DNA of 64,000 nucleotides from a virus (taxonomy: Duplodnaviria; Caudoviricetes). The stretch is taken from positions 1-64,000 of IMG/VR virus record IMGVR_UViG_3300020049_008034; one strand, written 5' to 3'. Position 1 is the stretch's first letter, and each line of letters starts with the position of its first letter. Made by a program: the position numbers and the translations under genes. Under the pieces are notes generated by a model. That model was not told the DNA's origin and made no database searches. It saw nothing but the letters and a program-made list of their open reading frames with translations. This document shows, one piece after another, positions 38 to 61,596 of the stretch.

Positions 38-295
38 TCATAACGTAAGTTTATCTATTGCTTTACCAATCTCAACCGGATCAGGAACAGGGAGTTCTTC
101 ACCTCGTCTCCAGCGGTTGTAAGTCTTAAGGAGTTCTTTGGCTTTGTTTAGTTCGGCGAAATATTCGTCGCCCGGATGATCAGGAAGGAGGTTGTATTGT
201 TCCTCTAGCATGGACTCGTTAGGAAGCCCTCCGTAACACTCTTTGATGTAATCTTCAAGTGTGATGTATCGATTGACGTATGGGTCGTATTTCAT
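38..295 (-). CDS. Hypothetical phage protein (85 aa)
   Basis: ORF track; 4-bp overlap with the upstream gene. Confidence 0.7.
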   Translation of the reverse strand: MKYDPYVNRYITLEDYIKECYGGLPNESMLEEQYNLLPDHPGDEYFAELNKAKELLKTYNRWRRGEELPVPDPVEIGKAIDKLTL

Positions 296-696
296 AGGCT
301 CTTTAAACGACTAATCACATCCTCACTCGTATGTCCATCCCATTCGTACTTTGCTTTTTCAACTGCTGGCACGCGGAAAAGATCCCAGTGCTTCATCTCG
401 TAATGATTTGAAATCTGACCACTCGGAAGGTTGGCGACAACAATAAACCATCCACCACCGAAACATAGCTCTCCATCGTGGTGTCGTTGTGATTTGTGTA
501 CGTCGTGTTTTGCTGGTAAGCTGACGAAATCGCATTCTTCTGCATCTCGTCCCCACTCATTAAAAAGTGAGACGTTGTAGGCCAAACGAATGTCGTAAAG
601 ATCTGAAAAGGTGTGCCATCCATCAGATACCTGAGATACATCTTTTCCGTCCGCCTTGGAGTCCAGGATGATTTGGTTGATTTTATCGATTTTCAT
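292..696 (-). CDS. Conserved phage protein with C-terminal WDGH motif
   Basis: WHTFSDLY...ELCFGGGWFIVVANLPSGQISNHY...EWDGHT; start moved to MKIDK (696), just downstream of a -7 promoter element. Confidence 0.75.
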   Translation of the reverse strand: MKIDKINQIILDSKADGKDVSQVSDGWHTFSDLYDIRLAYNVSLFNEWGRDAEECDFVSLPAKHDVHKSQRHHDGELCFGGGWFIVVANLPSGQISNHYEMKHWDLFRVPAVEKAKYEWDGHTSEDVISRLKSL

Positions 697-700
697 GCCA

Positions 701-731
701 CAAAGGTAAATCACTTAGGAATACGTGTCAA
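701..731 (-). promoter_or_regulatory. Bacteroidota sigma70-type promoter (leftward)
   Basis: Minus strand TTG (731-729), N20, TACCTTTG (708-701). Confidence 0.7.
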
Positions 732-1274
732 GGGTTTGGTGAAATATTGGGATGATTTTGTTTTGGGGTTATTTTTGGGTGTGTTTTGGAAGAATATTTG
801 GGAAAATGGGGTTTAAACTTACAATCGGCTTGTTTCAGCTCGGTAGGGGTGAAAATTATATTTGGTTTGGGGTGTTTTTGTGTCCAATTAAGAGGGTGTA
901 GGTTATTTTTATAGTTTGTCGATCTAGGGTGTGAGTAGATACATAGCAGGCCAGGGGTGCAAATCGCTGCGGGAAACGCGATCGCGAAGGCCGACGGGGG
1001 TGTAAAGCGATTGTGAAAGGGTAGGGGGTGTGTTTACTTATATGCACAAAACGTGCTCCAGAAGGCACTGAAAAAGTGATTTTAGTACACACGTTCTAAT
1101 TATGCTAAATGCCTCTATTGATAATCAATACGTTACGATCGTAAGCATAATGGTAAATTTGTTGTGACTACCTTAAGCTAGGTAAAACTAATTAGGTACT
1201 GCTTTTACGTGTATAGCCTATATTTTTGCATATTTATATGTTTTTATTGGTTTGCGGTCCTTTGGGGGGTATTA

Positions 1275-2053: not shown

Positions 2054-2099
2054 GTTCATCCGGGTTTCACTTAATTTTTAAACCTTTAAAACTCTTACC

Positions 2100-2375
2100 A
2101 TGCTTTACACCAAAATATTTCCCGCTAAAGTCAACGCCGCCGACGTTTTACCCGCTTATGACTGGGCTATTGCAAACCGTTCTAATGGAGTATTGCGGAC
2201 CGACGCACATTCAATGCTCAATTTAGATATGCTGCATTATTGGCTCAAGGTTGGGACTGGAGTTTTGATTCTTGATAAGTCTAAACCTTTAGCTGGTACT
2301 TATCTTATTCCTTTTCCACATGCTAAAGTAAAGCATTGGGTTAAGTCTGGAAAGCTTAAGATTGAAAGGATTTAA
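2100..2375 (+). CDS. Hypothetical early protein
   Basis: ORF track; motif follows the stop. Confidence 0.75.
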   Translation: MLYTKIFPAKVNAADVLPAYDWAIANRSNGVLRTDAHSMLNLDMLHYWLKVGTGVLILDKSKPLAGTYLIPFPHAKVKHWVKSGKLKIERI

Positions 2376-2390
2376 GTTCATCCGGGATTT

Positions 2391-2424
2391 TAATGGCCTG
2401 TAGATTTATTTCTACAGGCCATTA
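2391..2424 (+). terminator. Perfect 14-bp hairpin (terminator or processing stem)
   Basis: TAATGGCCTGTAGA-TTTATT-TCTACAGGCCATTA; no strong U tract. Confidence 0.5.
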
Positions 2425-2510
2425 TTCATTTAAGAACTTTATACGCAATTCTCAGCCCATTTAAACGGTGTGTAACGAAAATTTAGTTCAAATATACCTA
2501 CTTTGGTGTA

Positions 2511-2541
2511 TTGCGCACTGTATTTTATCTCCTTACCTTTG
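2511..2541 (+). promoter_or_regulatory. Bacteroidota-type promoter
   Basis: TTG (2511), N20, TACCTTTG (2534-2541). Confidence 0.7.
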
Positions 2542-2557
2542 TTGAAAATCAAACGAT

Positions 2558-2764
2558 ATGAAAAATCTAACCTTTGCTTTCTTGTTTATCCCTTTCTTAT
2601 CTTTCAGCCAAATGCCCAGTACTACGAAAGATAGTCTGGTTATTGGGACCGTTGTAAGGGATACTACTTTACAGGTGTTTACCTCAAAGACTGGCTCTAA
2701 GTTTTTGGTGTTGTGGTCTGAGAAGTCACAACGGTATTACAGGGTTTATTTGCCTAAAAAGTAG
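2558..2764 (+). CDS. Small secreted protein
   Basis: Signal-peptide-like N-terminus MKNLTFAFLFIPFLSFS-Q. Confidence 0.7.
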   Translation: MKNLTFAFLFIPFLSFSQMPSTTKDSLVIGTVVRDTTLQVFTSKTGSKFLVLWSEKSQRYYRVYLPKK

Positions 2765-2800
2765 TTCATCCGGGATTTTTTCACGCTAACAAACATTCAC

Positions 2801-2941
2801 ATGAGAACGTTTATCATTCAAATCTTTAATTCGCTGGGAAACTTGGTTTTTTCTGGCAAATGTAAAGCGGTATCATTCGATGATGCACGCGCAATGGCCG
2901 AACTTTCGGCCAAAAGTGGTGATGAAATAAAAATTTCTTAA
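2801..2941 (+). CDS. Small hypothetical protein (46 aa, below track cutoff)
   Basis: Manual translation MRTFIIQIFNSLGNLVFSG...DEIKIS; fills the gap between genes. Confidence 0.55.
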   Translation: MRTFIIQIFNSLGNLVFSGKCKAVSFDDARAMAELSAKSGDEIKIS

Positions 2942-2958
2942 CTCTTCAATTCAAAACA

Positions 2959-3288
2959 ATGATAACGCAAGAACGCGCTAAACAACTAGCTTTTGAATGG
3001 TTTGAAAATGACCATTTTAATCAATTTGCCGTAGACGGTGAATATAAGCCTGAATTTTGTCTCCGTTACCTTATGTCGATTGAATGGGCCATTATTGCAC
3101 CTGAAAGCGCTTTAAGACCGTACAACCACACAAAAAAGAACAGAAAGCAGTTAGAACAACTTGAGGCGTATTTTTCTAAGATTTGCCCTTATCCTTTTGA
3201 ATGGACTAAACATCCTCAATATGGATATCGTGTTCCGCAATTACTGGAGCATGTTGAAGGTGTTCATGGTTTGCGTTTACCTGTTTAA
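2959..3288 (+). CDS. Hypothetical early protein
   Basis: ORF track. Confidence 0.75.
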   Translation: MITQERAKQLAFEWFENDHFNQFAVDGEYKPEFCLRYLMSIEWAIIAPESALRPYNHTKKNRKQLEQLEAYFSKICPYPFEWTKHPQYGYRVPQLLEHVEGVHGLRLPV

Positions 3289-3325
3289 TTCATCCGGGAA
3301 TTTTTCAACCTTTCAATCTAATAAA

Positions 3326-3901
3326 ATGAGAACTGAACAGATTAATATCTATCAATTTTCAGAACTTTCTGAAAAAGCCAAACAAAACGCAATCGAAAAA
3401 CGTCGCTACTGGAATGTGAAACACAATTGGTGGAGCTTCATTTATGACCAGTTCAAAGAAGAACATCCACAATATGAAGATTGTGAAATTTCGTTTTCTG
3501 GTTTTTCTTCTCAAGGTGATGGAGCTAGTTTTACATTTAGGATCGACAGCGCGTATTTTGAAAAGTGGGTAAACGAATTGACTATTATTCCAGAATGGAA
3601 GAAAGCTATTTTAGTTCACTATACGCCACAATTTTACGGAAAGCGCAATAGTTTGCCATACGTACACAAAAGAAGCGTTACAATCGAATTCGACAGCGAA
3701 GAACACCATTACCCAAACATTGATGAGTTTAAAGAACAAATGTATGCTAACTTTTTGGCTTTTCTTCGCTCTGAATATTATACCCACTGCGATGAACTTT
3801 ACCGGACGCTTGAAGAGGAGTATGATTTTAGGACTTCTGATAAATACATAATTGAGAGGATGACAGATTGTGAGTTTTACGAGAATGGCGAAACTTATTA
3901 G
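3326..3901 (+). CDS. Conserved-looking phage early protein
   Basis: Start moved to MRTEQ; YQFSELSEKAKQNAIE N-terminus and acidic C-terminus. Confidence 0.75.
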   Translation: MRTEQINIYQFSELSEKAKQNAIEKRRYWNVKHNWWSFIYDQFKEEHPQYEDCEISFSGFSSQGDGASFTFRIDSAYFEKWVNELTIIPEWKKAILVHYTPQFYGKRNSLPYVHKRSVTIEFDSEEHHYPNIDEFKEQMYANFLAFLRSEYYTHCDELYRTLEEEYDFRTSDKYIIERMTDCEFYENGETY

Positions 3902-3922
3902 GGATTTGGGCCGTTTTGGCCC

Positions 3923-3975
3923 TTCCGTCGCGTTATGTGTGTAACGCCTGAAGAGTCGAAAACGACGAAACGGAA
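3923..3975 (+). ncRNA. Type III hammerhead ribozyme 1
   Basis: TTCCG-TC / GCGTTAT-GTGT-GTAACGC / CTGAAGA / GTCG-AAAA-CGAC / GAAA / CGGAA: full core and three stems; GUC cleavage after 3929. Confidence 0.93.
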
Positions 3976-3994
3976 AACTTTAAATTAACACAAC

Positions 3995-4159
3995 ATGACA
4001 CTTTTTGAACAATTTCATAAAAAAATAGCAGATTGTGCAACATTGCACGACCTTGAGCTAATAAAAGAAGAGGTTAAATCTGCTTTTGATGCTGACAGCG
4101 ACGAAAGGCTTGAACTTCTTGGGTTTGCTGGGATGGTGGAGGATTATTTAACATTCTAA
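3995..4159 (+). CDS. Small hypothetical protein (54 aa)
   Basis: Manual translation MTLFEQFHKKIADC...DYLTF; A-rich start context after the hammerhead. Confidence 0.6.
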   Translation: MTLFEQFHKKIADCATLHDLELIKEEVKSAFDADSDERLELLGFAGMVEDYLTF

Positions 4160-4170
4160 ATTTATCTAAC

Positions 4171-4428
4171 ATGGAATATTTACCAGACAACGCTTTTTGC
4201 ATTATCGACTCCAATCGTGGGATTTATATCCCTAGGGAATTTGCTAGGATTTGGGGTGAAGCATCCACAATGACTGCTGAACAAAGATTTATTCTTTCCG
4301 CCGGTCCTGATCACGTTGATTATTGGGACGTTTGGACCGAAATTGTGGACAATGTTGTTTTTGAGTTTGACGGTGAAAAATGTGTTTTGTGGGAGGACAG
4401 CGATTTATTCGCCGTTCCTGTAAATTAA
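4171..4428 (+). CDS. Hypothetical early protein
   Basis: ORF track. Confidence 0.75.
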   Translation: MEYLPDNAFCIIDSNRGIYIPREFARIWGEASTMTAEQRFILSAGPDHVDYWDVWTEIVDNVVFEFDGEKCVLWEDSDLFAVPVN

Positions 4429-4464
4429 TTCTTTTAGGGTATAGGAATTTAGTTTCCTTCTTTT

Positions 4465-4472
4465 TACCTTTG
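4465..4472 (+). promoter_or_regulatory. Possible -7 promoter element
   Basis: TACCTTTG; no clear TTG at -33; motif 5 nt downstream. Confidence 0.45.
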
Positions 4473-4526
4473 TATTGTTCATCCGGGCCATGTGCACGAT
4501 TTTTTTTCACACTTCAATCTATCCTT

Positions 4527-4889
4527 ATGAAAATCGAATCTTTTAACCCTGTTTTTGCAATAAACGGTAAAGCGCATAAAAAAGAAAAAGGCTATGCGGG
4601 TACTTACCTTATTGTTGACGCAAATTTAAATGTAAAATTGGATTTGCGCATTTACTGGACTGAAGCAAGGTGTTATGCTTGTGTTTGGTTCAATGGTGCA
4701 AGTGGTAGCGGTTATGCTGGTGGATGGGGTTACGAAAAAACCAGCGCTGCCGCTGAAGCCGCATTTCGTTGTGCGGGTCTTAAGATTAGCGGCTTGAGTG
4801 CCAGTGGAATGATTACAGAGGCTTTAGAATTGATCGCTGTTGAAATTCTGGGGCTTGATTCTTTCAAAGTTATACATACTCATCCTTAA
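4527..4889 (+). CDS. Hypothetical early protein
   Basis: Start moved to MKIES; contains SGSGYAGGWGYEKTSAA. Confidence 0.75.
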   Translation: MKIESFNPVFAINGKAHKKEKGYAGTYLIVDANLNVKLDLRIYWTEARCYACVWFNGASGSGYAGGWGYEKTSAAAEAAFRCAGLKISGLSASGMITEALELIAVEILGLDSFKVIHTHP

Positions 4890-4896
4890 TATTTTC

Positions 4897-4941
4897 AGCC
4901 GTGACGGTCTTAGTTAGCGTTCGATTCGCTAAACGGCTCAA
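4897..4941 (+). ncRNA. tRNA-like T-loop minihelix
   Basis: AGCCGT/ACGGCT stem stacked on TTAGCG-TTCGATT-CGCTAA (12 bp in total), ending in CAA followed by the motif. Confidence 0.6.
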
Positions 4942-4974
4942 TTCATCCGGGATTTTCCCACAAATTTTACAACT

Positions 4975-5346
4975 ATGTTACTCAAGGATATTTTCAAGCA
5001 AAAACCACAAAGGCCAGAAGTGGTAAAAAGGCCAATAATCGATGGTTATGGACTTGACCCTGATTTGTTTATAGAACATGCTGAAAAGCTTAAAAAGTAC
5101 CTTGATTATCAAAATAAAGCCTATGTTTTGTGGGCTGAATATGATAACAGTGTTTTAGTTTGGCTTGATTCTATGTTTAAACAAGTCGTTACCGATGTTT
5201 CATACCAATTCCCAGTGGATAAACGAGAAATTGCCCTACAGGCTGCCAAAAAACGTGTAGATATCGGTGATTTTGTCGACTACGATTTACAAGACTGGAT
5301 TGATTTTAGGGATGAACTAGAATTTCTTTCAAATCTTTTTTCATAA
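4975..5346 (+). CDS. Hypothetical early protein
   Basis: ORF track. Confidence 0.75.
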   Translation: MLLKDIFKQKPQRPEVVKRPIIDGYGLDPDLFIEHAEKLKKYLDYQNKAYVLWAEYDNSVLVWLDSMFKQVVTDVSYQFPVDKREIALQAAKKRVDIGDFVDYDLQDWIDFRDELEFLSNLFS

Positions 5347-5363
5347 CCAACAAACTTAAAAAA

Positions 5364-5825
5364 ATGATTACTATTCAAACAAAAGAATGGTTCGACAAGG
5401 TGAATGGAAACACCTATTTTTCCGCTGAAGTTCATCTGGGCAATGATTTAATTATGGTTCTGCCGTTCCAATACGGCTATAATGGCGCAAGGCAGGAGGT
5501 TGAAAATAGATTGGCCAAGCACTTTAGTAGTTGCGCCGAACGTTGGGAATTGCGATTGCGCAAAAATGGCATTGAAATCAGTGAGACTAAAAGTAAAGCG
5601 TTGAAGCGTGAACTTTCCAGGGAAAGCTTTGAAGATTTCACACCTTTCCTGAAAGATGAAAATCTGGCCCTTTATGCGGCGCATTCTATGCGCGAAGGTA
5701 TTCCGCTTAACCATCACACGATGGAAAACGTTTACATTGATTGGCTGACCAATGAAGGTGTTGGTATTACTTTTGCCAATGGTAGTAACGAACTTTATTC
5801 GTTTAATTCTTTCAATTGGTTTTAA
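5364..5825 (+). CDS. Hypothetical early protein
   Basis: ORF track; KEWFDKVNGNTYFSA...PFQYGY. Confidence 0.75.
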   Translation: MITIQTKEWFDKVNGNTYFSAEVHLGNDLIMVLPFQYGYNGARQEVENRLAKHFSSCAERWELRLRKNGIEISETKSKALKRELSRESFEDFTPFLKDENLALYAAHSMREGIPLNHHTMENVYIDWLTNEGVGITFANGSNELYSFNSFNWF

Positions 5826-5858
5826 TTCATCCGGGCTATGCCCACAAAACTTACGATA

Positions 5859-5990
5859 ATGGGAGGAATGACATTAGATTGGGTTTATTCGCCTTATGTG
5901 CCACCTGTAAAGATTGTAGCACCTAAACCAAAGCCTAAAAGCAAACATAATAAAGCCAGGGCGCTACGGTTTAAGGCTAAACATAGATAA
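5859..5990 (+). CDS. Small basic peptide (43 aa)
   Basis: Manual translation MGGMTLDWVYSPYVPPVKIVAPKPKPKSKHNKARALRFKAKHR; bounded by motif copies. Confidence 0.5.
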   Translation: MGGMTLDWVYSPYVPPVKIVAPKPKPKSKHNKARALRFKAKHR

Positions 5991-6016
5991 ACTCATCCGG
6001 GCCATGTGCGGTCCGG

Positions 6017-6068
6017 CCTGTCATGCCGTGTATTGCGGTGTCTGATGATTCGGAAACGATGAAACAGG
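6017..6068 (+). ncRNA. Type III hammerhead ribozyme 2
   Basis: CCTG-TC / ATGCCGT-GTATT-GCGGTGT / CTGATGA / T-TCG-GAAA-CGA-T / GAAA / CAGG; GUC cleavage after 6022; stem II has a U.U pair at its base. Confidence 0.85.
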
Positions 6069-6087
6069 GACGAGAAAAGTTAACAAA

Positions 6088-6405
6088 ATGGGTTACGCTG
6101 TATGGCATTCTCTGGAGATAAAAAACTCCACCGAAAAAGAAGTTATCATGGCTGATTTGCTTTCTGAAAATGAAAATGCAAGCTGTGCGCTAAATGAAGA
6201 TGGAACAGGCGAAGAATGGGAACGCTGGTATGGTATTGAAAAAGACATGCGCGAATTTTCCCTAAAATATCCTGGCGTACTATTTGAGTTTACGAATGAA
6301 GGCGAAGACGGCGACCGTTGGAAGGAATACTATATGGACGGCAAGTACCTTATGGCGTCTGCTATAATTACATACCCTGAGTTTGATGATAGAATGATGT
6401 CTTAG
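6088..6405 (+). CDS. Hypothetical early protein
   Basis: ORF track; FSLKYPGVLFEFTNEGEDG. Confidence 0.75.
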   Translation: MGYAVWHSLEIKNSTEKEVIMADLLSENENASCALNEDGTGEEWERWYGIEKDMREFSLKYPGVLFEFTNEGEDGDRWKEYYMDGKYLMASAIITYPEFDDRMMS

Positions 6406-6418
6406 ATCCATCCGGGCA

Positions 6419-6715
6419 ATGGCCCGCAAAACTAATAACATGACTTACTGGCAAGCATTCCACCAAATAATGCGCAAGGTCGACACAAGTCGCGGCGCTC
6501 CTATGGGCCGTCCAAATGTCGGTTCTCAACCAATCACTGTAACGCGCGACCCTAAATGCCGTGAATACAAATGTGATCAAACAAAAGTGTACCAACGTCG
6601 CGTTCCAATGATTGATGGCGCATATGACAGCGGTGGCGCTTATTGGGGTATTGGTAAACCGTTGTATGTGCGGTTTACTTTGGATTTGTCATACGTGGAG
6701 TTTTTCCGCGCTTAA
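6419..6715 (+). CDS. Conserved-looking phage protein (GAPMGR ... YDSGGAYWG)
   Basis: ORF track; motif-rich sequence. Confidence 0.75.
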   Translation: MARKTNNMTYWQAFHQIMRKVDTSRGAPMGRPNVGSQPITVTRDPKCREYKCDQTKVYQRRVPMIDGAYDSGGAYWGIGKPLYVRFTLDLSYVEFFRA

Positions 6716-6737
6716 TTCATCCGGGCAATAAATAGTT

Positions 6738-7046
6738 ATGAACAAGCAAATTGAACTCTTCAGGGCTGGTACGCCTAATGTTAGGGTATATATTCTACCT
6801 AAACAATGGGACGGTGTGACCGTTGTTTGGCCTTACAAGTCTGGTTATTCGTCTTTGACAAATGATGGGCAAATTTGTGAGCATTTTGTGGATACTGATT
6901 GCTATTCGTATGCAAATCCGGTTGACTCTAAAGGGTGTAAACACCTAGGCAAAAAAGCCAAATGGGAGGACTTGGACGAAAATGTGAAACAGTCTATTCT
7001 TTATCTATTCCCTTTAATTTGGGATGTTCATCCGGGTAATGTTTAG
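6738..7046 (+). CDS. Hypothetical early protein
   Basis: ORF track; motif lies in the last codons (HPG). Confidence 0.7.
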   Translation: MNKQIELFRAGTPNVRVYILPKQWDGVTVVWPYKSGYSSLTNDGQICEHFVDTDCYSYANPVDSKGCKHLGKKAKWEDLDENVKQSILYLFPLIWDVHPGNV

Positions 7047-7242
7047 AATAATGTACGACGGAGGCGATAAAGATTACTTTGTTGTCTCCGCAACCCATAC
7101 CGTAAATTTTGGCACTTATGAAGAAGCCAAGGTTTTTTACACGCTTGAGATGGCGCAATTGTACTATAAATCTTTCCCTGATCAATTTGTTGGGTCAAAA
7201 TTTGGCTGGCAAATTGTTTTTAATCAAGATTTATTTACATAA
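7039..7242 (+). CDS. Hypothetical early protein
   Basis: Start moved to ATG 7039, overlapping the upstream stop. Confidence 0.6.
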   Translation: MFRIMYDGGDKDYFVVSATHTVNFGTYEEAKVFYTLEMAQLYYKSFPDQFVGSKFGWQIVFNQDLFT

Positions 7243-7246
7243 AAGT

Positions 7247-7276
7247 TTGCAAGTCAGAATGTTATTTGTATATTTG
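7247..7276 (+). promoter_or_regulatory. Bacteroidota-type promoter abutting the motif
   Basis: TTG (7247), N19, TATATTTG (7269-7276), then TTCATCCGGG. Confidence 0.7.
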
Positions 7277-7310
7277 TTCATCCGGGCAATTGCTCGAAAA
7301 TTCAACAAAA

Positions 7311-7556
7311 ATGGTTGTTATAAACGATTTTAGCAAACAAATAGAATTGCTGCTTAATGGCAGCCCTGTTGGTGTGATTGACAACCTTATGCAACTCCAG
7401 GATATTAGAGTGCAGATAAGGAAAAATCAACTTTCTGGGTACGCAATCAAGCACAATGAAAATTTAATTCACATTAACAGCGACGGACATTTCCAGCCCG
7501 CTAAATTGGTCCCATTCTATAAGCAATGGGTGGATATGTGTTCTGAATTATTTTAA
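7311..7556 (+). CDS. Hypothetical early protein
   Basis: Start moved to MVVIN. Confidence 0.7.
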   Translation: MVVINDFSKQIELLLNGSPVGVIDNLMQLQDIRVQIRKNQLSGYAIKHNENLIHINSDGHFQPAKLVPFYKQWVDMCSELF

Positions 7557-7587
7557 TCATCCGGGCATTGCCCTAAATCTAAACAAA

Positions 7588-10720: not shown

Positions 10721-11077
10721 ATGTATCAACAAATTGAAGTCTTATTGGCTATGATTGGGACTTATCCTGAGAAGCCTAAGAAGCCCGTGTTGCTTACTGG
10801 AGCAAACTCGGATGACATGCGAAAGTATGCTGATGCTTTTGATGTCTTTCAAGCCAAGTTTGCAGAGTTTGAGGCAAATAGGCTGGAGTATTACCAGCGA
10901 AAAGGCGAGGTTGAGCACGAGATCACTGATCTGATCAACCGGGAATCAGGCTTGCTTAATATTCCTGAGCAGTACCGAGCTAAAATCTGGTCTATTGCAT
11001 GGGAAGAAGGGCATAGTGCTGGGTATCACGAGGTATATCAATGGCTGTGTCGATTGGTTGAAATTTTTGAAAACTAA
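10721..11077 (+). CDS. Hypothetical protein
   Basis: ORF track; AWEEGHSAGYHEV. Confidence 0.75.
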   Translation: MYQQIEVLLAMIGTYPEKPKKPVLLTGANSDDMRKYADAFDVFQAKFAEFEANRLEYYQRKGEVEHEITDLINRESGLLNIPEQYRAKIWSIAWEEGHSAGYHEVYQWLCRLVEIFEN

Positions 11078-11082
11078 AAACT

Positions 11083-11422: not shown

Positions 11423-11443
11423 AATTTAAACGCCTTATGTGAA

Positions 11444-12067: not shown

Positions 12068-12068
12068 A

Positions 12069-51697: not shown

Positions 51698-51746
51698 AGA
51701 TTTTGTTTTTAAAGGGGTGAGGATTGGGAGTCCTCACCCCTCTCAG

Positions 51747-53273: not shown

Positions 53274-53274
53274 G

Positions 53275-54159
53275 TTACTTTTTTGTATTGAGTTGACGAT
53301 AAGCCATTTCGGTCGCCGATGCCCAAGCGTCTTTCACTATCGCCTCAATCATTTGGTCTTTAGCCAATGTCTGAACTGAAAACTGGAACATTTGTTTTGC
53401 CATTACCAACCCCTGTTCATCTAGTTTAACGCCCTGCGCAACCAGAGTACTTAGAACATTTTGTTGTACGGCGTTCAATTGCTCCTGAGACAGCTCAGGT
53501 TTGAAATTGAGTTCGTAGCGATTCCCTTTATCAAGATCCACTTTAAGTGGGATCTCTTCGACACCCATAGACGGCAGTACTTGCTTCCAACCCGTCTCAA
53601 GCGCCCTGCGCTGTTCGACTTCTGGGTTTTTCACATTTGCTAAATCCGCCTTGTAGGTTTCGAGAAATTTCTTGGATTCGGTGGCCTTCATTTTGGCCTT
53701 TATTTCTCGTAGTCTTGAAGCCTTCGAAAACCCCTCTGGGTCGTCTTCCTCGTTTGGAAGCTCACCTAGTTCGTAGTTGATCAGTTCGTCGATCTCACTA
53801 GCCTCTAGTGAAGGATTTTGCATTTGATAATGGAGTTTGATTGCCGTGTTGTGGTCAATCTTGTCCATATCTAGGCTCTGGAGCTGAGTGAAGCGAAGTA
53901 GGTGATCAGAAGATGCTCCTTGTTTTGCTAGGTCGTTTATTTTGGCAACGAAATCATTAGCAAATGGAGAGATTTGAGATTGAGCTTTATATTGCTCTAC
54001 CTCTCCTTTAAGGAGATCATACTGGCCCAACCGGGCTTTTACTTCCTCAGCGGGTAGCCCGAAGGCATCAGCCTGAACAGGGGTAGAAGCTGGCGCGTTA
54101 GCGTTAGCGGCTGCCTGATTCGCTTGTTGGTCGGTTGCGACCGGAGCTGTGTTTTCCAT
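53275..54159 (-). CDS. Capsid scaffolding protein
   Basis: Low-complexity N-terminus, coiled coils, between portal and capsid. Confidence 0.7.
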   Translation of the reverse strand: MENTAPVATDQQANQAAANANAPASTPVQADAFGLPAEEVKARLGQYDLLKGEVEQYKAQSQISPFANDFVAKINDLAKQGASSDHLLRFTQLQSLDMDKIDHNTAIKLHYQMQNPSLEASEIDELINYELGELPNEEDDPEGFSKASRLREIKAKMKATESKKFLETYKADLANVKNPEVEQRRALETGWKQVLPSMGVEEIPLKVDLDKGNRYELNFKPELSQEQLNAVQQNVLSTLVAQGVKLDEQGLVMAKQMFQFSVQTLAKDQMIEAIVKDAWASATEMAYRQLNTKK

Positions 54160-54163
54160 GGTA

Positions 54164-54194
54164 CAAATATAATACTTTTTGTTTAAAAATCCAA
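54164..54194 (-). promoter_or_regulatory. Host-type promoter for the scaffold/capsid operon
   Basis: Minus strand TTG (54194-54192), N20, TATATTTG (54171-54164), a few nt before the ATG. Confidence 0.65.
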
Positions 54195-54197
54195 ATG

Positions 54198-56411
54198 CTA
54201 CTGCTCTAGCCTAGATTGGTTGTTTTCTCTTACCACATCTACCGCTTGAGCGTGTGACATAGCTGCTTGCTTTTCGATTTTCTGCATCTCGAATGGATGC
54301 TTTTTGATGTATAGATCGAACTCCGCTTGATTCATTGCGGCAATTTCCTGAAGCTTGGCTTGCATCGCATTCATTGCATTCTGCCCTCTTGCGTTTTCAA
54401 CCGCTACTCCAGCCTCAGCATTGCCTTGAGCGACTGCTTGCTGAACTTCCATTTGTCTTTGGTGAGCGCGTTCTTCTGCTTTTTTAATCGCCAACATCAA
54501 AATGAACTGAGCCTTTTTCAGATCGTTTTGTTCAAGGCAGTTCATCACCACCAAATAAGACTCTGGAGGTAGTTGATCACGCTTCTCCATAAGGCTTTGC
54601 ATAATCATATTCTTGGTCTCTTGCGTTTCGACTTGCACGTCTACCAAAAACTCCTCACGACCGAAATCTCTTCCTCCGGTGATCACCGTTAGCCCTTCTC
54701 GCTGCTGTGATCCATATGCCAAGATAGATTGCTGTTGCCTAAGGACAACATATTTGATCATGGCGTTGTAGAAGTTAACGTATGTGGTTAGGAGTGGGCG
54801 AATAATCGAATTAGAAGCCTTTTCCAGCCCGATAGCGACGTTTTTAAGCATATCTGGCACTGCTCCGTCTACCAACTCATTTAAGCCCGTCATGGCTCTT
54901 ATGTTCTGGATGTGCGACATAATTTCTTGCTGGAGGATGGCAAAGTCTTCCCCTACTCCGGAAGGCAAAAATTCGATAGGCTTGAGGTTGGCAATATTGG
55001 GGTTGTCTGAAAAGTCAGCATTTCTTTCTAAAACAAATATACCTTCGGTTTGGTATAAATGCAGGAGTTCTTTGATTGAAAACTCATCTGCCCCAATAGA
55101 AACGCTGTCCATGATCACGTCCTTCCAGATGATCATCCGGGGTCCGGGTGCGATTTTTGTCTTAAGCGCCCGAAGCTTATATGTGTCTAATTGGAGGTCG
55201 TCATCGAACGGGATTACGTTTTCTGTAACCGAAGTTCTTTGTGTGCAAAAAACAATCAAAGGGAACATTAGTCGGTCTCCATCACGCACCATCATGTCTA
55301 CCGGCCCAAACTCCAAAATGATATCTGTTCCAACAACCCATTGGGCTTTGTACATTCTTAAAATATCGTACTCTTCTACCGTCTTTCCTTGCTTTACGCC
55401 TCTTTCGGAGAGTTTAAAGCCCGGTTGAACAACCTCGAACTGCCGAACTCCATTCTTGCGAACTCCCTTAACTACCGGGTAATTGTCGTATTCAATCCAG
55501 TACATCGTTACGACCTTTACGCTCTCTTTTGGGACACCATGACGAACATAATCCTCTTTCTCTCCCCATGTCCACTTGATACCGGCGACATTTTTCAATG
55601 CTTTAATGTCGACGTTTTTGTGCTTGGCTTTAATTTCAGAGATAGAAGGGTAAGCCCAATAGCCACGATACTCAGTGTCTCGGTAGTCTTCATGGATGGA
55701 TTTAGGGATAATCAGTGATGCTGGGTCAACATAAAGGAACTGCCCTACTCCGTTGATCACATCATAGTCCATGGCTGCTAAAGCAATATCGATAAAATCC
55801 TCAATAGGCAGATTGAAAAGAGATGCCTGACCGGAATTTCTTAAAGCGACGTCAGCGACGTCTTTTGCGATGATTTCTCGCTCTAGTCGAATTCCGCCCA
55901 ACTGATCAAGAATGTCGACATCTTCCTGAGATTGAGCAGGCATAGGAGGCGTGGTGTAGTCGGCCCCTTGCATGAATGTCTTCATCTCATCCGATAAGAG
56001 AAGCTTCATTTTGTTTTTAACAAAGTCCTTCTCCAACACCGCATCATTAGAGGTTGCGTCTATTTTAGGCGTTAGGATGAGTTCTTGGAACTTAGACCTT
56101 AAGATAGCCTTGTACCTCTCGTAGTGCCTAGATATCTCCCAAGAAATATTCATGTTGTACTTCTTGGCATTACCCTTTTTTCTGGGTGGGTCGACCTGAT
56201 CTCGGTATCGGGACGGATGTTGAACGCCTTTACCATGATCTCTGAGTTCTTTAAATGATCTTTGAGAATAACCATGAAGACCGCCGTTGGGGCCAATCAT
56301 GCAGTTATTCTGAGAGAATTGACCATAGTAGTATTTGCACATATCCAAGGCGTATTTTTCATCTCGGTTTGTGCCTTCTGGTCGGGAGGTTATGGATCTG
56401 TAATCAAACAT
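54198..56411 (-). CDS. Portal protein
   Basis: 737 aa directly after terL; IRAMTGLNELVDG motif and C-terminal Gln-rich barrel helix. Confidence 0.8.
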   Translation of the reverse strand: MFDYRSITSRPEGTNRDEKYALDMCKYYYGQFSQNNCMIGPNGGLHGYSQRSFKELRDHGKGVQHPSRYRDQVDPPRKKGNAKKYNMNISWEISRHYERYKAILRSKFQELILTPKIDATSNDAVLEKDFVKNKMKLLLSDEMKTFMQGADYTTPPMPAQSQEDVDILDQLGGIRLEREIIAKDVADVALRNSGQASLFNLPIEDFIDIALAAMDYDVINGVGQFLYVDPASLIIPKSIHEDYRDTEYRGYWAYPSISEIKAKHKNVDIKALKNVAGIKWTWGEKEDYVRHGVPKESVKVVTMYWIEYDNYPVVKGVRKNGVRQFEVVQPGFKLSERGVKQGKTVEEYDILRMYKAQWVVGTDIILEFGPVDMMVRDGDRLMFPLIVFCTQRTSVTENVIPFDDDLQLDTYKLRALKTKIAPGPRMIIWKDVIMDSVSIGADEFSIKELLHLYQTEGIFVLERNADFSDNPNIANLKPIEFLPSGVGEDFAILQQEIMSHIQNIRAMTGLNELVDGAVPDMLKNVAIGLEKASNSIIRPLLTTYVNFYNAMIKYVVLRQQQSILAYGSQQREGLTVITGGRDFGREEFLVDVQVETQETKNMIMQSLMEKRDQLPPESYLVVMNCLEQNDLKKAQFILMLAIKKAEERAHQRQMEVQQAVAQGNAEAGVAVENARGQNAMNAMQAKLQEIAAMNQAEFDLYIKKHPFEMQKIEKQAAMSHAQAVDVVRENNQSRLEQ

Positions 56412-56412
56412 G

Positions 56413-58485
56413 TCAGTTGTTTAAATAGAATGAATTGGCGCCCCATACTGGTTTTTCATCCGGGGTTTCTTTTTTGTGCTCCATATCCGCAATGAGTGTC
56501 CAGCCTGAAGCAACGGCTGTGTCAAATTTTGTTCTCTTGGCGGTTTCAAAATACATCCACTGGTAAATCAATCTTGGAAGTTTTTCGGCCCAGATGTTTT
56601 TAGCAATGTGGGCAGAAAGAAGGTCCACGTAGTTCGATACCAAGTGGGTAGTTGTTTTTGATCCATGGCGAGCTTCACGCTTTCTTGACAAGCCTGTAAT
56701 GAGTTCGTGTGGCTCGTATTGCACCAAACCCTTGTATCCTGTTCTCTTGGCCCATTGTACTAGCCCTGGCTTATCTACCTCTGGGTAGAACTGAACTCCG
56801 AAGAACCACGCTGTTAATAACACGTCACGGTAAAAGTCATCCGGGTCTTTATGGCGGTATTTATAGTCGCAAACAAATTGATTCGTTCGCATATCCCATG
56901 TATTGACAACCTCTCCGTTTTCGTCGAACTGTAGCTTACCTTGGTCTTCATGAAGTAGGTTAAATTTCCGAAAAACAGTGAATGACCCGTCAGATCCTTT
57001 GAGTACCGGAACGTCGCTATCGTATGGGTCAACCCCCATGCGGTAGTATGGCATATTCTGGGCAACGTAATTATTGCCTCTTTTAAGGATAGCGTTTTCC
57101 CGGAACGGCATCTGCGAAAATTGCCAATGTCCTCCCTTTCTTCGGATAAACTCAACCTCAGTGTTGGGCTTACCGTTTTTCCAAACCAAATCACCTTCGA
57201 TGATTTCGACCTTTTCGCCGGGTTTATTCCATCTATTCAACCCTTCCTTGATTTGATTAAGACGGATCTCACACATCCTGGGGTGGAGTGGACAATTAGA
57301 AGTTGGTTTTACGAATGCATCCTCAATCGAAGCAGGTTCCTTTCTTTTAAGCGAAATTATCGCTTCTTCGTTCCCCTGCTCCATTAGGGTTTCCATGCGG
57401 TTTTGGCGGTGCTTCTTGGCTTGCTCAACTTTAGGCATCCCAAACTCGTCCACAATGGCGTTCTTAGTGAAGTCTCTGAATATTCTATAAAGGCCAGAAA
57501 TAGTTCTGCCGTTCTTATCTCTTTCGTTTGGGTTTGAATCGTCCCAAATTTGGGATGCCATTTCAACTGTAGACTTATCTACGTCTGACTCCTTTTCTTC
57601 TACCGTGCTGGTTAAGAGGGCTTTACCGTAAACTGTCATCTCGTTATTTAGCGTAATAACTCGACGTATATTTTCCCATTGAGCCCTAAGTGACATCCTG
57701 AAACTTTGGATCTTGAAAATCTCATCCATGTACATTGTGCCGAGTTGGCTTCCGTCAAACGCTCCTGTCACTGCTGCTTCGTAAGATATAGTAGAGTCTA
57801 AGAATTCCCCATAAGACTCCGGGACGACAATGTCTCTTTCTCCTTTCATCCGCTTCATTGTTACAACCTCGTTAGGTATATGGAACTGAAGTGTCTCCCC
57901 GGTAGATCCAGAATGTTTTGGTTTGAAGAAGTAAGGCATTTTATTGTGCCCTCTAACTAAGCGATTGTAAGCTTTTTTTGCCTCTGGATCACTATAAGAC
58001 TGGAGTCCGCCTGGGTAATTAAAGAATCTAGTTGTTCTCTCATAAAGAATAAACAATGCTTTTTCGGTTTCACCAATTCTACGTGGCTTTATTGTTATTC
58101 CGCCAAGGCAGTGGGGGTCTGGCTCTATTATCATGTAAAAAAACCACATAAACTCAAGTGCCTCTAACCTAAAATCTGGTCTCTTGCCTGTATTAGTTGT
58201 CCAAAAATCAAAGAACATTGTCGCTGGACCAGGGATATAGTATGGTTCTCCTTTTATTAGCTGCCACTCCCCGTGCTCCCTCCGATGCCATTGTTGTTCT
58301 GCCAGATTATCCAAGTCAAATTCGTTCATTGACTTCAGGTCTGGCATCTCAAATTTCTTGTACTTTTGCTGACTGATAGGAAGATGATAATTTATCATCT
58401 CTCTTTCAATGGGCTGGTCCGGAACAGCAAATGTGTATTCCTCAAGTGTTTGTGTCAAGCCTTGGTCCCATGTCTTAGTGTACAT
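56413..58485 (-). CDS. terL: Terminase large subunit
   Basis: KPRRIGET Walker A, MYMDE Walker B, RNase H-like MGVDPYD and KRTKFDTAVA. Confidence 0.88.
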   Translation of the reverse strand: MYTKTWDQGLTQTLEEYTFAVPDQPIEREMINYHLPISQQKYKKFEMPDLKSMNEFDLDNLAEQQWHRREHGEWQLIKGEPYYIPGPATMFFDFWTTNTGKRPDFRLEALEFMWFFYMIIEPDPHCLGGITIKPRRIGETEKALFILYERTTRFFNYPGGLQSYSDPEAKKAYNRLVRGHNKMPYFFKPKHSGSTGETLQFHIPNEVVTMKRMKGERDIVVPESYGEFLDSTISYEAAVTGAFDGSQLGTMYMDEIFKIQSFRMSLRAQWENIRRVITLNNEMTVYGKALLTSTVEEKESDVDKSTVEMASQIWDDSNPNERDKNGRTISGLYRIFRDFTKNAIVDEFGMPKVEQAKKHRQNRMETLMEQGNEEAIISLKRKEPASIEDAFVKPTSNCPLHPRMCEIRLNQIKEGLNRWNKPGEKVEIIEGDLVWKNGKPNTEVEFIRRKGGHWQFSQMPFRENAILKRGNNYVAQNMPYYRMGVDPYDSDVPVLKGSDGSFTVFRKFNLLHEDQGKLQFDENGEVVNTWDMRTNQFVCDYKYRHKDPDDFYRDVLLTAWFFGVQFYPEVDKPGLVQWAKRTGYKGLVQYEPHELITGLSRKREARHGSKTTTHLVSNYVDLLSAHIAKNIWAEKLPRLIYQWMYFETAKRTKFDTAVASGWTLIADMEHKKETPDEKPVWGANSFYLNN

Positions 58486-59557
58486 CCAAGAATTTTTTAG
58501 CTACTTCGTATTTGCGATCCAAGAAATACTTGGGGTCATTTCCGTACAGCTTTTTCAATAAAACAATAGCTTGCGTTCCGTAGATAGATGTTTTGTAGAT
58601 ATTCCCATCCTTACATGGTTTTGCCATGCTTTCGCAATTTTTTCTGACCCATTCTGCGAAAGCGAATACCGCGTCTTTCGACCCGCAAAGCCCAACATAA
58701 GGTTTTCCGTAATACTTATCCGTATTTACCCATCCATCCCCATCGATCATTCCGCGCCAGAAGTCGGCGTTATTTGCGCAATATTCATACGGCTTGAATG
58801 TTAGGCTTTTGTTTGGAGTAATGCCGAACTTCAGCAACGAGCCAACTATTCTCTGAGAGCTAAATGTAAAGGCTACGTATTCCCCCTTTTTGGTATTTAG
58901 GACATCATGCCCACTCTTACAAAATTCTTTGAATTTATGGAGATGATCTACATCTCCAGGCTGCAACTCTATTTTTAAGTTCCGCCCGTGAACGTTTCCG
59001 TCAGCCCCAATAAATCCCATCCAGTACATTGAATCACGGGTTAGTGACTCAAATACCGTTTCATCCAAATCTATTCTTCGAACTGAATCTGCATTTGATC
59101 TTCTTTTCTTGTCATGGCGATCCATCATTCTTCGGATGGTATGGTCTTTTATCCCGTATTCTTTTGCGATGTCAACGCAAGTCATACCGCTTTCATATTT
59201 AGCTAAAATATCCGTTTCTTGGACTTTGCTAATATGTCTTCGAGAGCACCCACATGAAACAATTCTTCCGTTCTTTACAAAACTTATGTTCTGCGCCTTA
59301 GTGACTCCGCATTCACATTTGCAAAAATAAAACTTGATTGCTCCTTGCTTATGACTAAAGTACAGAATGGTAAGTTTATTAAACTTTTGTCCAATCAGCT
59401 CATCTTTCTGCGGCAAAACATCGGATGGCTTGACACCGTATTTTTTCATCACGTTGTCTATACAATTTGTAGAAACCCCGTACTCTTTGCCGAGATTGGA
59501 TCTCGACTCCCCATTGATATACCGATCAATAATTACTTCTTCATCACATTGTTTCAT
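58475..59557 (-). CDS. Free-standing LAGLIDADG-type homing endonuclease with N-terminal HTH/Zn modules
   Basis: YWMGFIGADG and FWRGMIDGDG; LIGQKFNKLT..CKCECG segment. Confidence 0.8.
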   Translation of the reverse strand: MKQCDEEVIIDRYINGESRSNLGKEYGVSTNCIDNVMKKYGVKPSDVLPQKDELIGQKFNKLTILYFSHKQGAIKFYFCKCECGVTKAQNISFVKNGRIVSCGCSRRHISKVQETDILAKYESGMTCVDIAKEYGIKDHTIRRMMDRHDKKRRSNADSVRRIDLDETVFESLTRDSMYWMGFIGADGNVHGRNLKIELQPGDVDHLHKFKEFCKSGHDVLNTKKGEYVAFTFSSQRIVGSLLKFGITPNKSLTFKPYEYCANNADFWRGMIDGDGWVNTDKYYGKPYVGLCGSKDAVFAFAEWVRKNCESMAKPCKDGNIYKTSIYGTQAIVLLKKLYGNDPKYFLDRKYEVAKKFLDVH

Positions 59558-59967
59558 CTCCTAAAGTTTATCGGAATTCCAAAAAAGTTTTTTACCTGAG
59601 TGATCAAAAGTTCCAATCGTCGTAATTTCCCATCAATACTTTCCCGGCCAGGAGCGATGAGTTCATCCGGGTCTTCCAAGAGCGCGTCACGAATATCGGC
59701 GGAACTTACAACGTTTTCTTTGAATGAATTACCGGCGTATCGTATTGCATCTGGGAGTGTGATTGAGTCTGCGATCCATAAATACTGAACACCTACTGTT
59801 CCAGTAAATGTATACCTGTATCTCCCCAGTGAGATAAATGTCATTGCTCCGCTGGACACAGCAGTACCATCGACCAATGTAACAGTGCATATTGGCGATA
59901 AAGAGTTCTCTGGGCCGGATGGCCCGACGAATTCTGCAATGACTGTGTATGAAACTGATGCTGCCAT
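59554..59967 (-). CDS. Hypothetical protein
   Basis: ORF track. Confidence 0.65.
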   Translation of the reverse strand: MAASVSYTVIAEFVGPSGPENSLSPICTVTLVDGTAVSSGAMTFISLGRYRYTFTGTVGVQYLWIADSITLPDAIRYAGNSFKENVVSSADIRDALLEDPDELIAPGRESIDGKLRRLELLITQVKNFFGIPINFRR

Positions 59968-61059
59968 TTATAAAGTATAGTCTATCACCGTTGGTTTTGG
60001 ACCCCCTTCAATAATCATGAATCCGCTCGTTCCTTCTGCCCCCAACTGTATCCCGTAATCAGTGCTTGGGATAAAAGAAGGTGCGGTTATTTGCCTATAG
60101 TTCCGACCATCCGGGCTTCGTTTCACTTGACGAGAATGATTATGCCCTTGGATAATGATGTTGAACTTATCTTGAGCGCCAAGTCTAAAAATCTTCTCAT
60201 ATGGATCTTGCTTACTTAGAGGCCAATTCCCGTGCTCGGCAATCAATCTAAACCCATCGTCGTCGGTTACTAAGTAAAATGGATCAAACTTAACTGGATA
60301 CCCTCTCAACTCAAGGATGTAAGCAATCAAATCGGCAGCTCCGGCTTTGGAATCATTTTCGGTCTTGTCGCTCATTCTGTCGTGATTACCTCCTATTAGT
60401 GTGAATCCGACAAGATTATTGATTTGATCCAAGAAGTGGGCAATAATTTTGGATGATTCCTTGATCAAGTCTACTCCCCACATCTCAATTGACTTCCATG
60501 TATCCGCATGGTTGCGGCCCGTAAAACTCTCTAAGCAATCCCCCAAGCAGTGTACAATTACTCTTTTGTAATTCCTACTATTAACGATCGCCGCTGTTTC
60601 GCTTAAAAGTTCAACAACCTTTTTTAGATTGTATTCCTTGTGGATAGCCCCCATATGAAGATCAGAAATAATGACGTGAGCAATTTGCCCTTCTACTTCC
60701 CTGATCTCATACTTCGGCAGCCCTTCGGCAAATTCTTTAAACTGCTCTACTTCTAATGGTCTCGGGACTACCTTGATCTTTAGTCGGTGGTTTTGAACCG
60801 TTATTGGTCCATCCGGGCCTTTGATCGGAGTTTCCCAATATGTAGACTCGATAGGACGAGCCATGTATTTTTTTGGGTCGACTTTATGGTATTTCATTAG
60901 GTCGTCAGCCGTTCGGCATGGACCTTCAAAAACAATCTCCCCGTCTTCATATTCATACAGGAGAGATCCAGGGCCATCGACTCTTGCTTTTTCTAGAAGC
61001 AGCATCCATTGTTTGTACTCATCTTCTGAGGAGTACGTAAGTCTTGGTCGTATTTCCAT
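59968..61059 (-). CDS. Calcineurin-like metallophosphoesterase
   Basis: SDLH, GD, GNHD, HG, GHNH motifs in order. Confidence 0.88.
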   Translation of the reverse strand: MEIRPRLTYSSEDEYKQWMLLLEKARVDGPGSLLYEYEDGEIVFEGPCRTADDLMKYHKVDPKKYMARPIESTYWETPIKGPDGPITVQNHRLKIKVVPRPLEVEQFKEFAEGLPKYEIREVEGQIAHVIISDLHMGAIHKEYNLKKVVELLSETAAIVNSRNYKRVIVHCLGDCLESFTGRNHADTWKSIEMWGVDLIKESSKIIAHFLDQINNLVGFTLIGGNHDRMSDKTENDSKAGAADLIAYILELRGYPVKFDPFYLVTDDDGFRLIAEHGNWPLSKQDPYEKIFRLGAQDKFNIIIQGHNHSRQVKRSPDGRNYRQITAPSFIPSTDYGIQLGAEGTSGFMIIEGGPKPTVIDYTL

Positions 61060-61083
61060 GCAACAAAAATAGTAACAAATTCT

Positions 61084-61596
61084 TTAATTTGCAACTATTA
61101 GTGTTGATTTTTCGCTTACCCATCTCTTGCCTCTCCGAAAGAAGATTTCTTTATTATACTCGAAGACATCTTGAGAGTACCAAGTTATCCGCTTATTGCC
61201 GATTTTATCATTTTTGATTGTTACTTCGATGCCGTTCAGTTTCCATTTGCCTCTGATGGTGTCTCTTGGTCCATCCGGGCTCTTTTTAAACAAATCGTTT
61301 AGCTGTTTAGTCGGCTGACGAAGCCTTGTCAAATAAGATTTCTCTTGTTCTTCCCAAGCAAGCTTGGCGTATCGGTATTGAAGGGCAGCATCGTATCGTT
61401 CGTTCACGAGTGTCCTTAAGACAAGAGAATCAGTATTGGTAAATGGAAATTTTTGATAAATAATTGAGTCTCCGATATTGGTAAAGGTTTCCTTGAACCA
61501 AGTCGAGTCTTTGTTGGATCGAACCCCTTTTGAGTAAACAATGGAGTCTTGTTGAGCAAAAGAGAAAAAAGGAATAAAAAGAAGCAAATATCTCAT
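61084..61596 (-). CDS. Secreted protein
   Basis: MRYLLLFIPFFSFA-Q; start moved. Confidence 0.65.
   Translation of the reverse strand: MRYLLLFIPFFSFAQQDSIVYSKGVRSNKDSTWFKETFTNIGDSIIYQKFPFTNTDSLVLRTLVNERYDAALQYRYAKLAWEEQEKSYLTRLRQPTKQLNDLFKKSPDGPRDTIRGKWKLNGIEVTIKNDKIGNKRITWYSQDVFEYNKEIFFRRGKRWVSEKSTLIVAN

Follow-up and report, generated by a model that had tools for sequence, protein, structure and literature searches.

A clade-specific DNA word, YCAWCCGGG, saturates a wastewater phage genome and may act as a Chi-like signal

In Cluster A mycobacteriophages, the 13-bp sites of the L5 repressor gp71, known as stoperators (GGTGGMTGTCAAG), occur at about 25-35 per 50 kb. The extragenic palindromes of Escherichia coli, termed repetitive extragenic palindromic (REP) sequences or bacterial interspersed mosaic elements (BIME), read GCCGGATG...CATCCGGC; the DnaG primase of the same bacterium uses the site CTG, known DnaG sites being trinucleotides. 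For the cyanobacterial word HIP1, a methyltransferase acting together with biased mismatch repair has reportedly been proposed. Here, we analyze a short asymmetric word, the octamer CATCCGGG and its extended form YCAWCCGGG, in the virus record IMGVR_UViG_3300020049_008034 (Duplodnaviria; Caudoviricetes); the window analyzed is the first 64 kb of this single 77,548-bp record. Among described phages, the closest parallels are the E. coli phages LLS and P1 and the Pseudomonas phage MD8. Their most frequent octamer is Chi, with one copy per 1.9 kb in LLS and P1; in these Chi-rich phages, Chi lies inside genes and the genomes lack a recombination module of their own (PMC12315714). The template recognition site of T7 primase is 5'-(G/T)2GTC-3' (PMC12839067). 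Bacteroides uses AddAB, and the B. fragilis enzyme has been characterized, with its Chi still unknown as of 2010 (PMC2887965).

YCAWCCGGG is a clade-specific DNA word held by positive and purifying selection in phages of Bacteroidota type, and it is explained neither by a peptide nor by codon use nor by general host composition. In the window, CATCCGGG occurs in 69 exact copies, whereas 100 dinucleotide-preserving shuffles average 1.46 and never exceed 5; the initial annotation, made by eye, had counted 67 (45 plus, 22 minus) at about one per kb, which the exact count bears out. Twelve further copies lie in the 13.5 kb past the window, and with 81 copies in the whole record CATCCGGG is its most frequent 8-mer, above all A/T runs. 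The resulting density of 1.04 per kb is about 55 times the shuffle expectation and about ten times that of the codon-aware null described below.

171..61279, both strands (46 plus, 23 minus): exact copies of CATCCGGG, consensus YCATCCGGG(C), the first at 171-178 and the last at 61272-61279
10936..61883, strand not specified: variant CAACCGGG, the sole enriched one-mismatch variant, 16 copies in the window and 18 in the record

The word is sharply delimited. Its 5' neighbor is a pyrimidine at 66 of the 69 window copies (T at 49, C at 17), in agreement with the earlier count of 65 out of 67 with T at 48, and its 3' neighbor is C at 37 of them. Over the whole record, CATCCGG is followed by G in 81 of 90 cases and ATCCGGG is preceded by C in 81 of 83. 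The 24 one-mismatch variants have 0-6 copies each in the record, with the sole exception of CAACCGGG (18 copies), and the word is therefore best written CAWCCGGG or, with the preceding pyrimidine, YCAWCCGGG, for a total of 99 copies. CCGG elsewhere than in the word stands at 0.89 of expectation, which rules out a general CCGG effect or restriction avoidance. A literature search for either spelling of the octamer returned no paper.

The copies occupy all six reading frames as well as spacers, as the initial annotation had seen when it noted several frames on both strands and no single peptide behind them. Open reading frames (ORFs) hold 69 of the 81 record copies (85%). When synonymous codons were shuffled within each gene 300 times, leaving the proteins and the per-gene codon use unchanged, only 6.6 +/- 2.4 coding copies were obtained (maximum 14) against the 69 observed; the enrichment, earlier gauged from uniform base composition, thus persists under a codon-aware null. 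A peptide or codon origin of the word is ruled out by this shortfall together with the six-frame placement. Certain peptides are encoded as the word almost wherever they occur in the proteome, namely HPG (6/6), PG[CW] (4/4) and [APST]RM (10/11), with xPD[ADEGV] at 27/39. One copy in the TerL gene rests on the peptide DPDD, at whose second D most aligned relatives differ, commonly with DPED, while a second rests on a TPDEK tail seen only in the present phage and its 95% twin. Some of the copies arose through amino-acid changes, the proteins being bent to hold the word. Among orthologues of about 60% amino-acid identity, roughly half of the sites are found at the same residue and the remainder have been gained or lost, a pattern of purifying selection on single sites, accompanied by turnover.

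The word extends across a clade and stops there. In TerL relatives of 59-65% identity, CATCCGGG is the top octamer:

L003: 10 copies in 20 kb
L016: 13 copies in 14 kb
L017: 9 copies in 13 kb

A close relative, L101, whose primase is 87% identical, holds 25 copies in 21 kb. A sister group at 45-47% TerL identity retains the core AWCCGGG, still top-ranked, with shifted edges: the form is YAACCGGG(G/C) in L045 and AWCCGGGC(C/T) in L047, where 33 AWCCGGG occur in 22 kb (1.5 per kb). No comparable word was found in relatives at 39% TerL identity or less, in the nearest cultured phages (Cellulophaga and Flavobacterium phages, 24%) or in fifteen unrelated viral contigs. Sequencing runs holding the phage are wastewater and biofilm metagenomes, represented by contigs only, with shares of at most 0.48. 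Both the word and its clade are new, as is the combination of gene-end and RNA-stem placements. A role as a recombination or cassette boundary was considered and rejected, the homology breakpoints between the phage and L101 missing the copies except around one 81-bp unit.

The orientation of the copies follows the layout of the genome. The genes point rightward between 1.5 and 26.4 kb and leftward in the remainder of the record, and the copies fall into three blocks whose non-randomness is supported by a chi-square test (p = 5.6e-5) and by a segmentation permutation test (p = 0.0075). The first border, at 14.8 kb, coincides with a tRNA island, where a further transcription unit begins.

1-14,812: orientation block 1, 23 plus and 5 minus copies
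14,813-26,116: orientation block 2, 4 plus and 13 minus copies
26,117 to end: orientation block 3, 28 plus and 8 minus copies
26117..27014: second orientation switch, coinciding with the convergence of plus- and minus-strand gene blocks at about 26.4 kb
11444-12067: lambda-O-like replication initiator gene (tandem winged helix-turn-helix (wHTH) protein)
12069-12133, plus strand: 23-bp iterons, unit GAATGTACAAAAAAGACCCACCC, 2.8 copies, 100% identical, directly after the O-like initiator gene and outside the motif set

Relative to genes, early-operon copies are in the sense direction, and most copies in other regions are antisense. In the early operon the polarity is strong and extends to every intergenic copy, 12 of 12 of which are on the plus strand. 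The antisense lean in the late genes is modest, since the codon null alone predicts 58% antisense and the structural regions of the relatives reach about 60%. Spacing is random (coefficient of variation (CV) 1.16; Kolmogorov-Smirnov (KS) p = 0.48), and the exponential gap distribution rules out a regular spacing. Density is about 2 per kb at 2-16 kb and about 0.8 per kb elsewhere, and outside the early region the position of copies within genes is uniform (KS p = 0.24).

From these data we infer, tentatively, that the word is a putative Chi-like signal for a DNA-end helicase-nuclease, the likeliest of the readings considered and, even so, possible rather than probable, with a phage-encoded DNA-binding protein and an RNA-level role still in contention. 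A translocating helicase-nuclease, the AddAB-type enzyme of the host or possibly a phage enzyme, would read the short asymmetric word on DNA, and at the word it would halt DNA degradation and begin recombination. Each copy would protect and recombine the stretch behind it, and selection would favor many copies in both orientations. Some copies appear to have been co-opted in RNA, serving as gene-end elements of the early operon or pairing with their complements to close stems round tRNAs and small RNAs; such roles may well be secondary for a word that is abundant in DNA. The reading draws on the status of CATCCGGG as the commonest octamer, at a density and an excess over both nulls that recall Chi-rich phages, on its six-frame placement with amino acids changed to make it, and on the individual sites conserved in position between orthologues some 60% identical, other sites having turned over. 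It also draws on the AWCCGGG core, which stays top-ranked with drifting edges in relatives to a TerL identity of 45%, much as the Chi of one host group differs from that of another, and on the non-random, three-block orientation. The gene content fits as well: a scan with Pfam and PHROGs covered about 70 proteins, many small ORFs staying unannotated, and detected no annealing protein, recombinase or RecBCD/AddAB inhibitor among them, in keeping with a "no Rec module, many Chi" rule (PMC12315714). The nuclease- or recombination-type matches were limited to two exonuclease-like proteins and a RusA-like resolvase. Finally, the use of AddAB by Bacteroides, with a Chi undefined in the 2010 paper (PMC2887965), leaves room for such a word.

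Several observations weigh against a Chi-like role. The genomes searched numbered 652, comprising 401 evenly drawn Bacteroidota and 251 from the family of a Saprospiraceae metagenome-assembled genome (MAG), and they gave no host-side signal; the true host may not be among them. A density of 0.1-0.2 per kb (maximum 0.22) was reached only in G+C-rich or CCGG-rich genomes. In seven genomes sampled from the highest counts (47-61% G+C, all CCGG-rich or G+C-rich), there was no specific enrichment, the word ranking 109th or lower with neighbors equally common; it stood at the Markov expectation in the three genomes for which this was computed (G014, G506 and G510), and showed no consistent polarity relative to GC skew in the four genomes tested. 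On the phage side, the orientation switches fall at transcription-unit borders, away from the iteron origin, 26 of the 81 copies are on the minority strand, and the structural regions of the relatives are about 60% antisense, near the 58% of the codon null. The position of early-operon copies 1-3 nt past stop codons has no Chi logic. In addition, known AddAB Chi words are 5-7 nt long.

The same search bears on the idea that the phage merely shares a genome-wide signal of its host, such as an uptake sequence or a REP-type element, or an artefact of composition or codon use. Many Bacteroidota genomes do hold the word above its reversed control, CCG-GAT-GAA being common codons, and REP-like arrays based on GTAGCCCGGATGA exist in unrelated metagenome contigs. 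Nevertheless, the codon-aware null falls tenfold short, no searched genome exceeds 0.22 per kb and the word is non-specific in the sampled highest-count genomes, and 85% of the phage copies are single and inside genes rather than extragenic palindromes, so that this explanation is largely refuted and extremely unlikely. TCATCCGGGC reached at most 62 copies per genome in the 401 Bacteroidota, and YCATCCGGG at most 0.13 per kb in the 251 genomes of the family; two Saprospiraceae MAGs hold the word at chance level, and one Saprospiraceae MAG of 3.8 Mb, G405, has 12 copies of YCATCCGGG. A saturated bacterial chromosome, as required by uptake sequences (uptake signal sequences, USS, or DNA uptake sequences, DUS), was not found in the 652 genomes, outside which the true host may fall. 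A host of 47-49% G+C would hold the word every 5-7 kb through composition alone. Equal enrichment across the host genome and unrelated Bacteroidota phages, which the initial annotation had named as the mark of a known host signal, was not seen in the genomes and phages searched. Its reading as a DNA-level signal is upheld by the codon-aware null, by the absence of the word from unrelated Bacteroidota phages and by the lack of specific enrichment in the searched Bacteroidota genomes. Within the family sample, G434, G527, G419 and G513 hold YCATCCGGG 7 to 50 times more rarely than the reversed control (e.g. 1 versus 48), which suggests avoidance of a CCGG-type sub-word there.

Leads to the host were sought among the phage genes. 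The record occurs in wastewater metagenomes, and its DnaG-type primase has bacterial matches among DnaG proteins labeled Saprospiraceae, Lewinella, Phaeodactylibacter and Aureispira at about 41-43% identity; going by sequence similarity, the primase may be taken as a lead to the host group and nothing beyond. The TnpB gene gave matches of at most 61% identity in many phyla, the GmhA-like gene matched two genomes, both without the word, and a TerL profile run across the 251 genomes hit one unrelated 2-kb fragment only.

21140-22585: phage DnaG-type primase gene, with phage homologues at 66-99% identity

The encoded primase bears a CHC2 zinc ribbon, and the phage also has its own DnaB-like helicase, which raises the question of whether the word could be the start site of the primase. 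A template 5'-CCCGGWTG-3' would then give the primer pppA(U/A)CCGGG and mark lagging-strand priming. The phage does encode both helicase and primase, the word begins with CA, as does the complement of CTG, the DnaG site of E. coli, its mean spacing of about 1 kb equals the size of an Okazaki fragment, and one orientation switch lies within 3 kb of the iterons, which are likely the replication origin. These iterons lie 2.7 kb left of the first switch, with five plus-strand copies between. What makes priming very unlikely is that spacing is random, that the switch sits at 14.8 kb versus 12.1 kb for the iterons, that the second switch would imply, on one side, a terminus no more than 14 kb from the origin, that polarity is weak in the relatives, and that known DnaG sites are trinucleotides. 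The tandem wHTH protein, one of the readers suggested by the initial annotation, is an unlikely candidate, being a lambda-O-like initiator with its own 23-bp iterons directly downstream. The Rha/ANT protein, the ParB-domain virion protein and the tyrosine recombinase, suggested there too, stay candidate readers.

In the early operon, a set of copies marks the ends of genes.

2057..7565, plus strand: copies of (T)TCATCCGGG at early-operon junctions, sense strand throughout

The (T)TCATCCGGG element lies 1-3 nt past eight stop codons (2053, 2375, 2764, 5825, 5990, 6405, 6715 and 7556), and several of these copies continue into GGGC-NNN-GCCC mini-hairpins. As an alternative to Chi, the word might be bound genome-wide by a sequence-specific protein that the phage itself encodes, either as a stoperator-like polar block to RNA polymerase or as an organizer or protector of phage DNA, a putative role that we regard as doubtful, if less so than the other alternatives. 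The word is confined to the phage clade, with edges that shift from one subclade to the next, and the genomes searched showed no specific host enrichment; its density is near that of stoperators, the early-operon copies at gene ends share a single orientation, the orientation blocks end at transcription-unit borders, and the strong enrichment holds for either orientation, as expected if duplex DNA is what is read. Temperate-type genes, for a tyrosine recombinase and a Rha/ANT protein, are present as well. Set against this, Pfam and PHROGs recognized no repressor gene and no other candidate, the one wHTH candidate having its own iterons; stoperators face the same way relative to transcription throughout, unlike the word, which changes from sense in the early operon to antisense in the later ones; and coding sequence contains 85% of the copies.

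At two early gene junctions, the Rfam type III hammerhead model gave full-length matches, both below the gathering score: one at 3922-3976 (41.5 bits, E 4.6e-7) and one at 6015-6070 (25.1 bits, E 0.02), the latter directly after a motif copy.

Copies close to one another are arranged as inverted pairs: of the word pairs less than 110 bp apart, 7/7 are inverted (p = 0.003). The most elaborate arrangement is found in an island of tRNAs and non-coding RNAs (ncRNAs), where copies form 9-13-bp stems bracketing a tRNA-Thr, a tRNA-like unit, a tRNA-Met and an 81-bp unit.

14812..15547, alternating inverted: tRNA/ncRNA island copies, seven in number
15019-15091: tRNA-Thr
15391-15465: tRNA-Met
15469-15549: 81-bp unit, 92.6% conserved in L101, with flanks at about 72%
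12488..12530: divergent inverted pair with a 27-nt spacer, followed by a T-rich run
21973..22046: convergent inverted pair with a 58-nt spacer within the primase gene, kept in L101 (10831/10897)
30848..30923: convergent inverted pair with a 60-nt spacer within the ORF 30542-31138

From its sequence, the pair at 12488..12530 looks like a two-way terminator hairpin. Over 14977-15549, the modules of the island open with TCATCCGGGCGGYTAAAG and close with GCCCGGATGA; module content differs in L101, which is without the tRNA-Met unit. A pattern scan of IMG/VR for the long inverted pair gave no match, and a metagenome pattern scan gave mostly chance hairpins and unrelated REP-like arrays. The latter are palindromic arrays of GTAGCCCGGATGA...TCATCCGGGCTAC on unrelated metagenome contigs (L148 780-1300, L206 870-1000 and L221 980-1090), one of them on a high-G+C contig and one adjoining a gene that resembles the glycyl-tRNA synthetase beta subunit; they have the letters of the phage word in common and no other link to the phage.

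These placements raise the possibility of an RNA-level signal, in which CAUCCGGG would mark early mRNAs at gene ends and antisense RNAs of later genes for cleavage or termination and, with its complement, build processing stems. Consistent with such a role, early copies lie 1-3 nt past stops and two other early junctions show the sub-threshold hammerhead-model matches; inverted pairs bracket tRNAs and the conserved 81-nt unit, with all seven close pairs inverted; the 12 intergenic copies are all on the plus strand; and potential sites in the late block are realized at 10/50 in sense frames versus 25/36 antisense. Yet the late genes still hold 11 sense copies, the structural genes of the relatives are about 40% sense (19 sense and 14 antisense in L047), and selection against antisense RNA hardly seems strong enough to remodel proteins and preserve single sites across long divergence; we thus judge an RNA-level signal unlikely.

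Modification or repair of DNA could also leave a word behind, as the target or by-product of a methyltransferase acting with biased mismatch repair, for example, or as a site of nicking or one related to restriction. Both CCGG and CCSGG are part of the word, a T4-gp1-like dNMP (deoxynucleoside monophosphate) kinase is among the phage proteins, and the close relative L101 carries a C5-cytosine methyltransferase. The record itself has no match to PF00145 and no other methyltransferase was found in it; the word is non-palindromic, its near-variants are not depleted and CCGG beyond the word is at expectation. A repair bias would moreover leave the 50-fold enrichment and the conserved positions unexplained, and this origin is at least as improbable as priming. 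The initial annotation had entertained a system that creates the site, for which the undepleted near-variants lend no support, and had contrasted the word with the avoidance of restriction sites by phages, a contrast that does not apply here, non-motif CCGG not being depleted (0.89). The methyltransferase of L101 (PF00145, 332 aa; noted at L101 1-47) is encoded upstream of its tRNA/Rha region.

Elements of these alternatives may be combined. With a phage-encoded reader, the word would serve as a "self" mark private to the phage and scarce in host-type chromosomes of low G+C such as G405, by which a phage helicase-nuclease or a polar DNA/RNA-binding factor would spare or organize phage DNA; in RNA it would in addition tag early mRNAs and antisense transcripts for removal, as a dual DNA/RNA genome-wide code co-evolving with the clade. 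We consider this combination somewhat unlikely, less so than a signal acting on RNA alone.

The longest stretch without the exact word surrounds a TnpB gene and is as expected of recently acquired DNA.

36223..43702: longest stretch without the exact word, 7.5 kb, containing the IS605-type TnpB gene and its neighbors
41378-42625, minus strand: IS605-type TnpB gene, among virion genes and without TnpA

The scan found TnpB only and no Y1 transposase (RAYT/TnpA). L101 has a different TnpB-like gene at another place (5122-6204), both TnpB genes being in motif-free stretches. A 1972-aa virion protein showed no sequence match to any solved RNA polymerase. Auxiliary genes (L001 11239-12708, 13456-13956 and 16995-17543; window 29106-29600) encode a GroEL-like chaperonin and the T4-gp1-like dNMP kinase, and the same set includes a copper monooxygenase C-domain protein, three WDGH-domain proteins and a GmhA-like phosphoheptose isomerase.

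The density of the word is above that of Chi in each of the Chi-rich phages described in PMC12315714, and the spacers and proteins of a whole clade have been rewritten to hold it. Should the Chi-like reading be true, with the word as the Chi of a Bacteroidota AddAB, it would provide the first candidate sequence for a long-open question; should the reader be phage-encoded, it would represent a new genome-wide recognition system. Under either reading, the word is a simple marker for members of an uncultured wastewater phage clade.

Among known systems, the word resembles the Chi of Chi-rich phages and the stoperators, and we assign it to neither. As in LLS, P1 and MD8, it is an asymmetric 8-mer and the commonest octamer, at about one copy per 1-2 kb, placed in coding sequence in any frame and beyond codon use, in a phage with no recombinase detected. 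Unlike in these phages, it is denser (1.0 per kb, and 1.5 per kb for AWCCGGG in L047), one third of its copies are on the other strand (in LLS 20/23 and in MD8 32/32 share one orientation), its gene-end and RNA-stem copies are without counterpart, and host enrichment or polarity was not found in the genomes searched. With Cluster A stoperators it shares dozens of asymmetric copies genome-wide, many at gene ends, an orientation tied to transcription units and restriction to a lineage; it differs in being shorter (8-9 bp), mostly within genes and opposite in early and late orientation, and in the lack of a recognized repressor. REP/BIME elements have similar letters, and the tRNA-island hairpins made from inverted copies recall them, whereas the phage copies are mostly single, in genes and in all frames, with no RAYT or TnpA gene. 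Unlike a HIP1-type word, the present one is no palindrome and has no cognate methyltransferase found in the record. Phage primase sites, finally, would call for a strand-specific short word about once per kb, and the phage has its own primase; the word departs from such sites by being far longer than any DnaG-type site, randomly spaced and with an orientation switch off the iteron origin.

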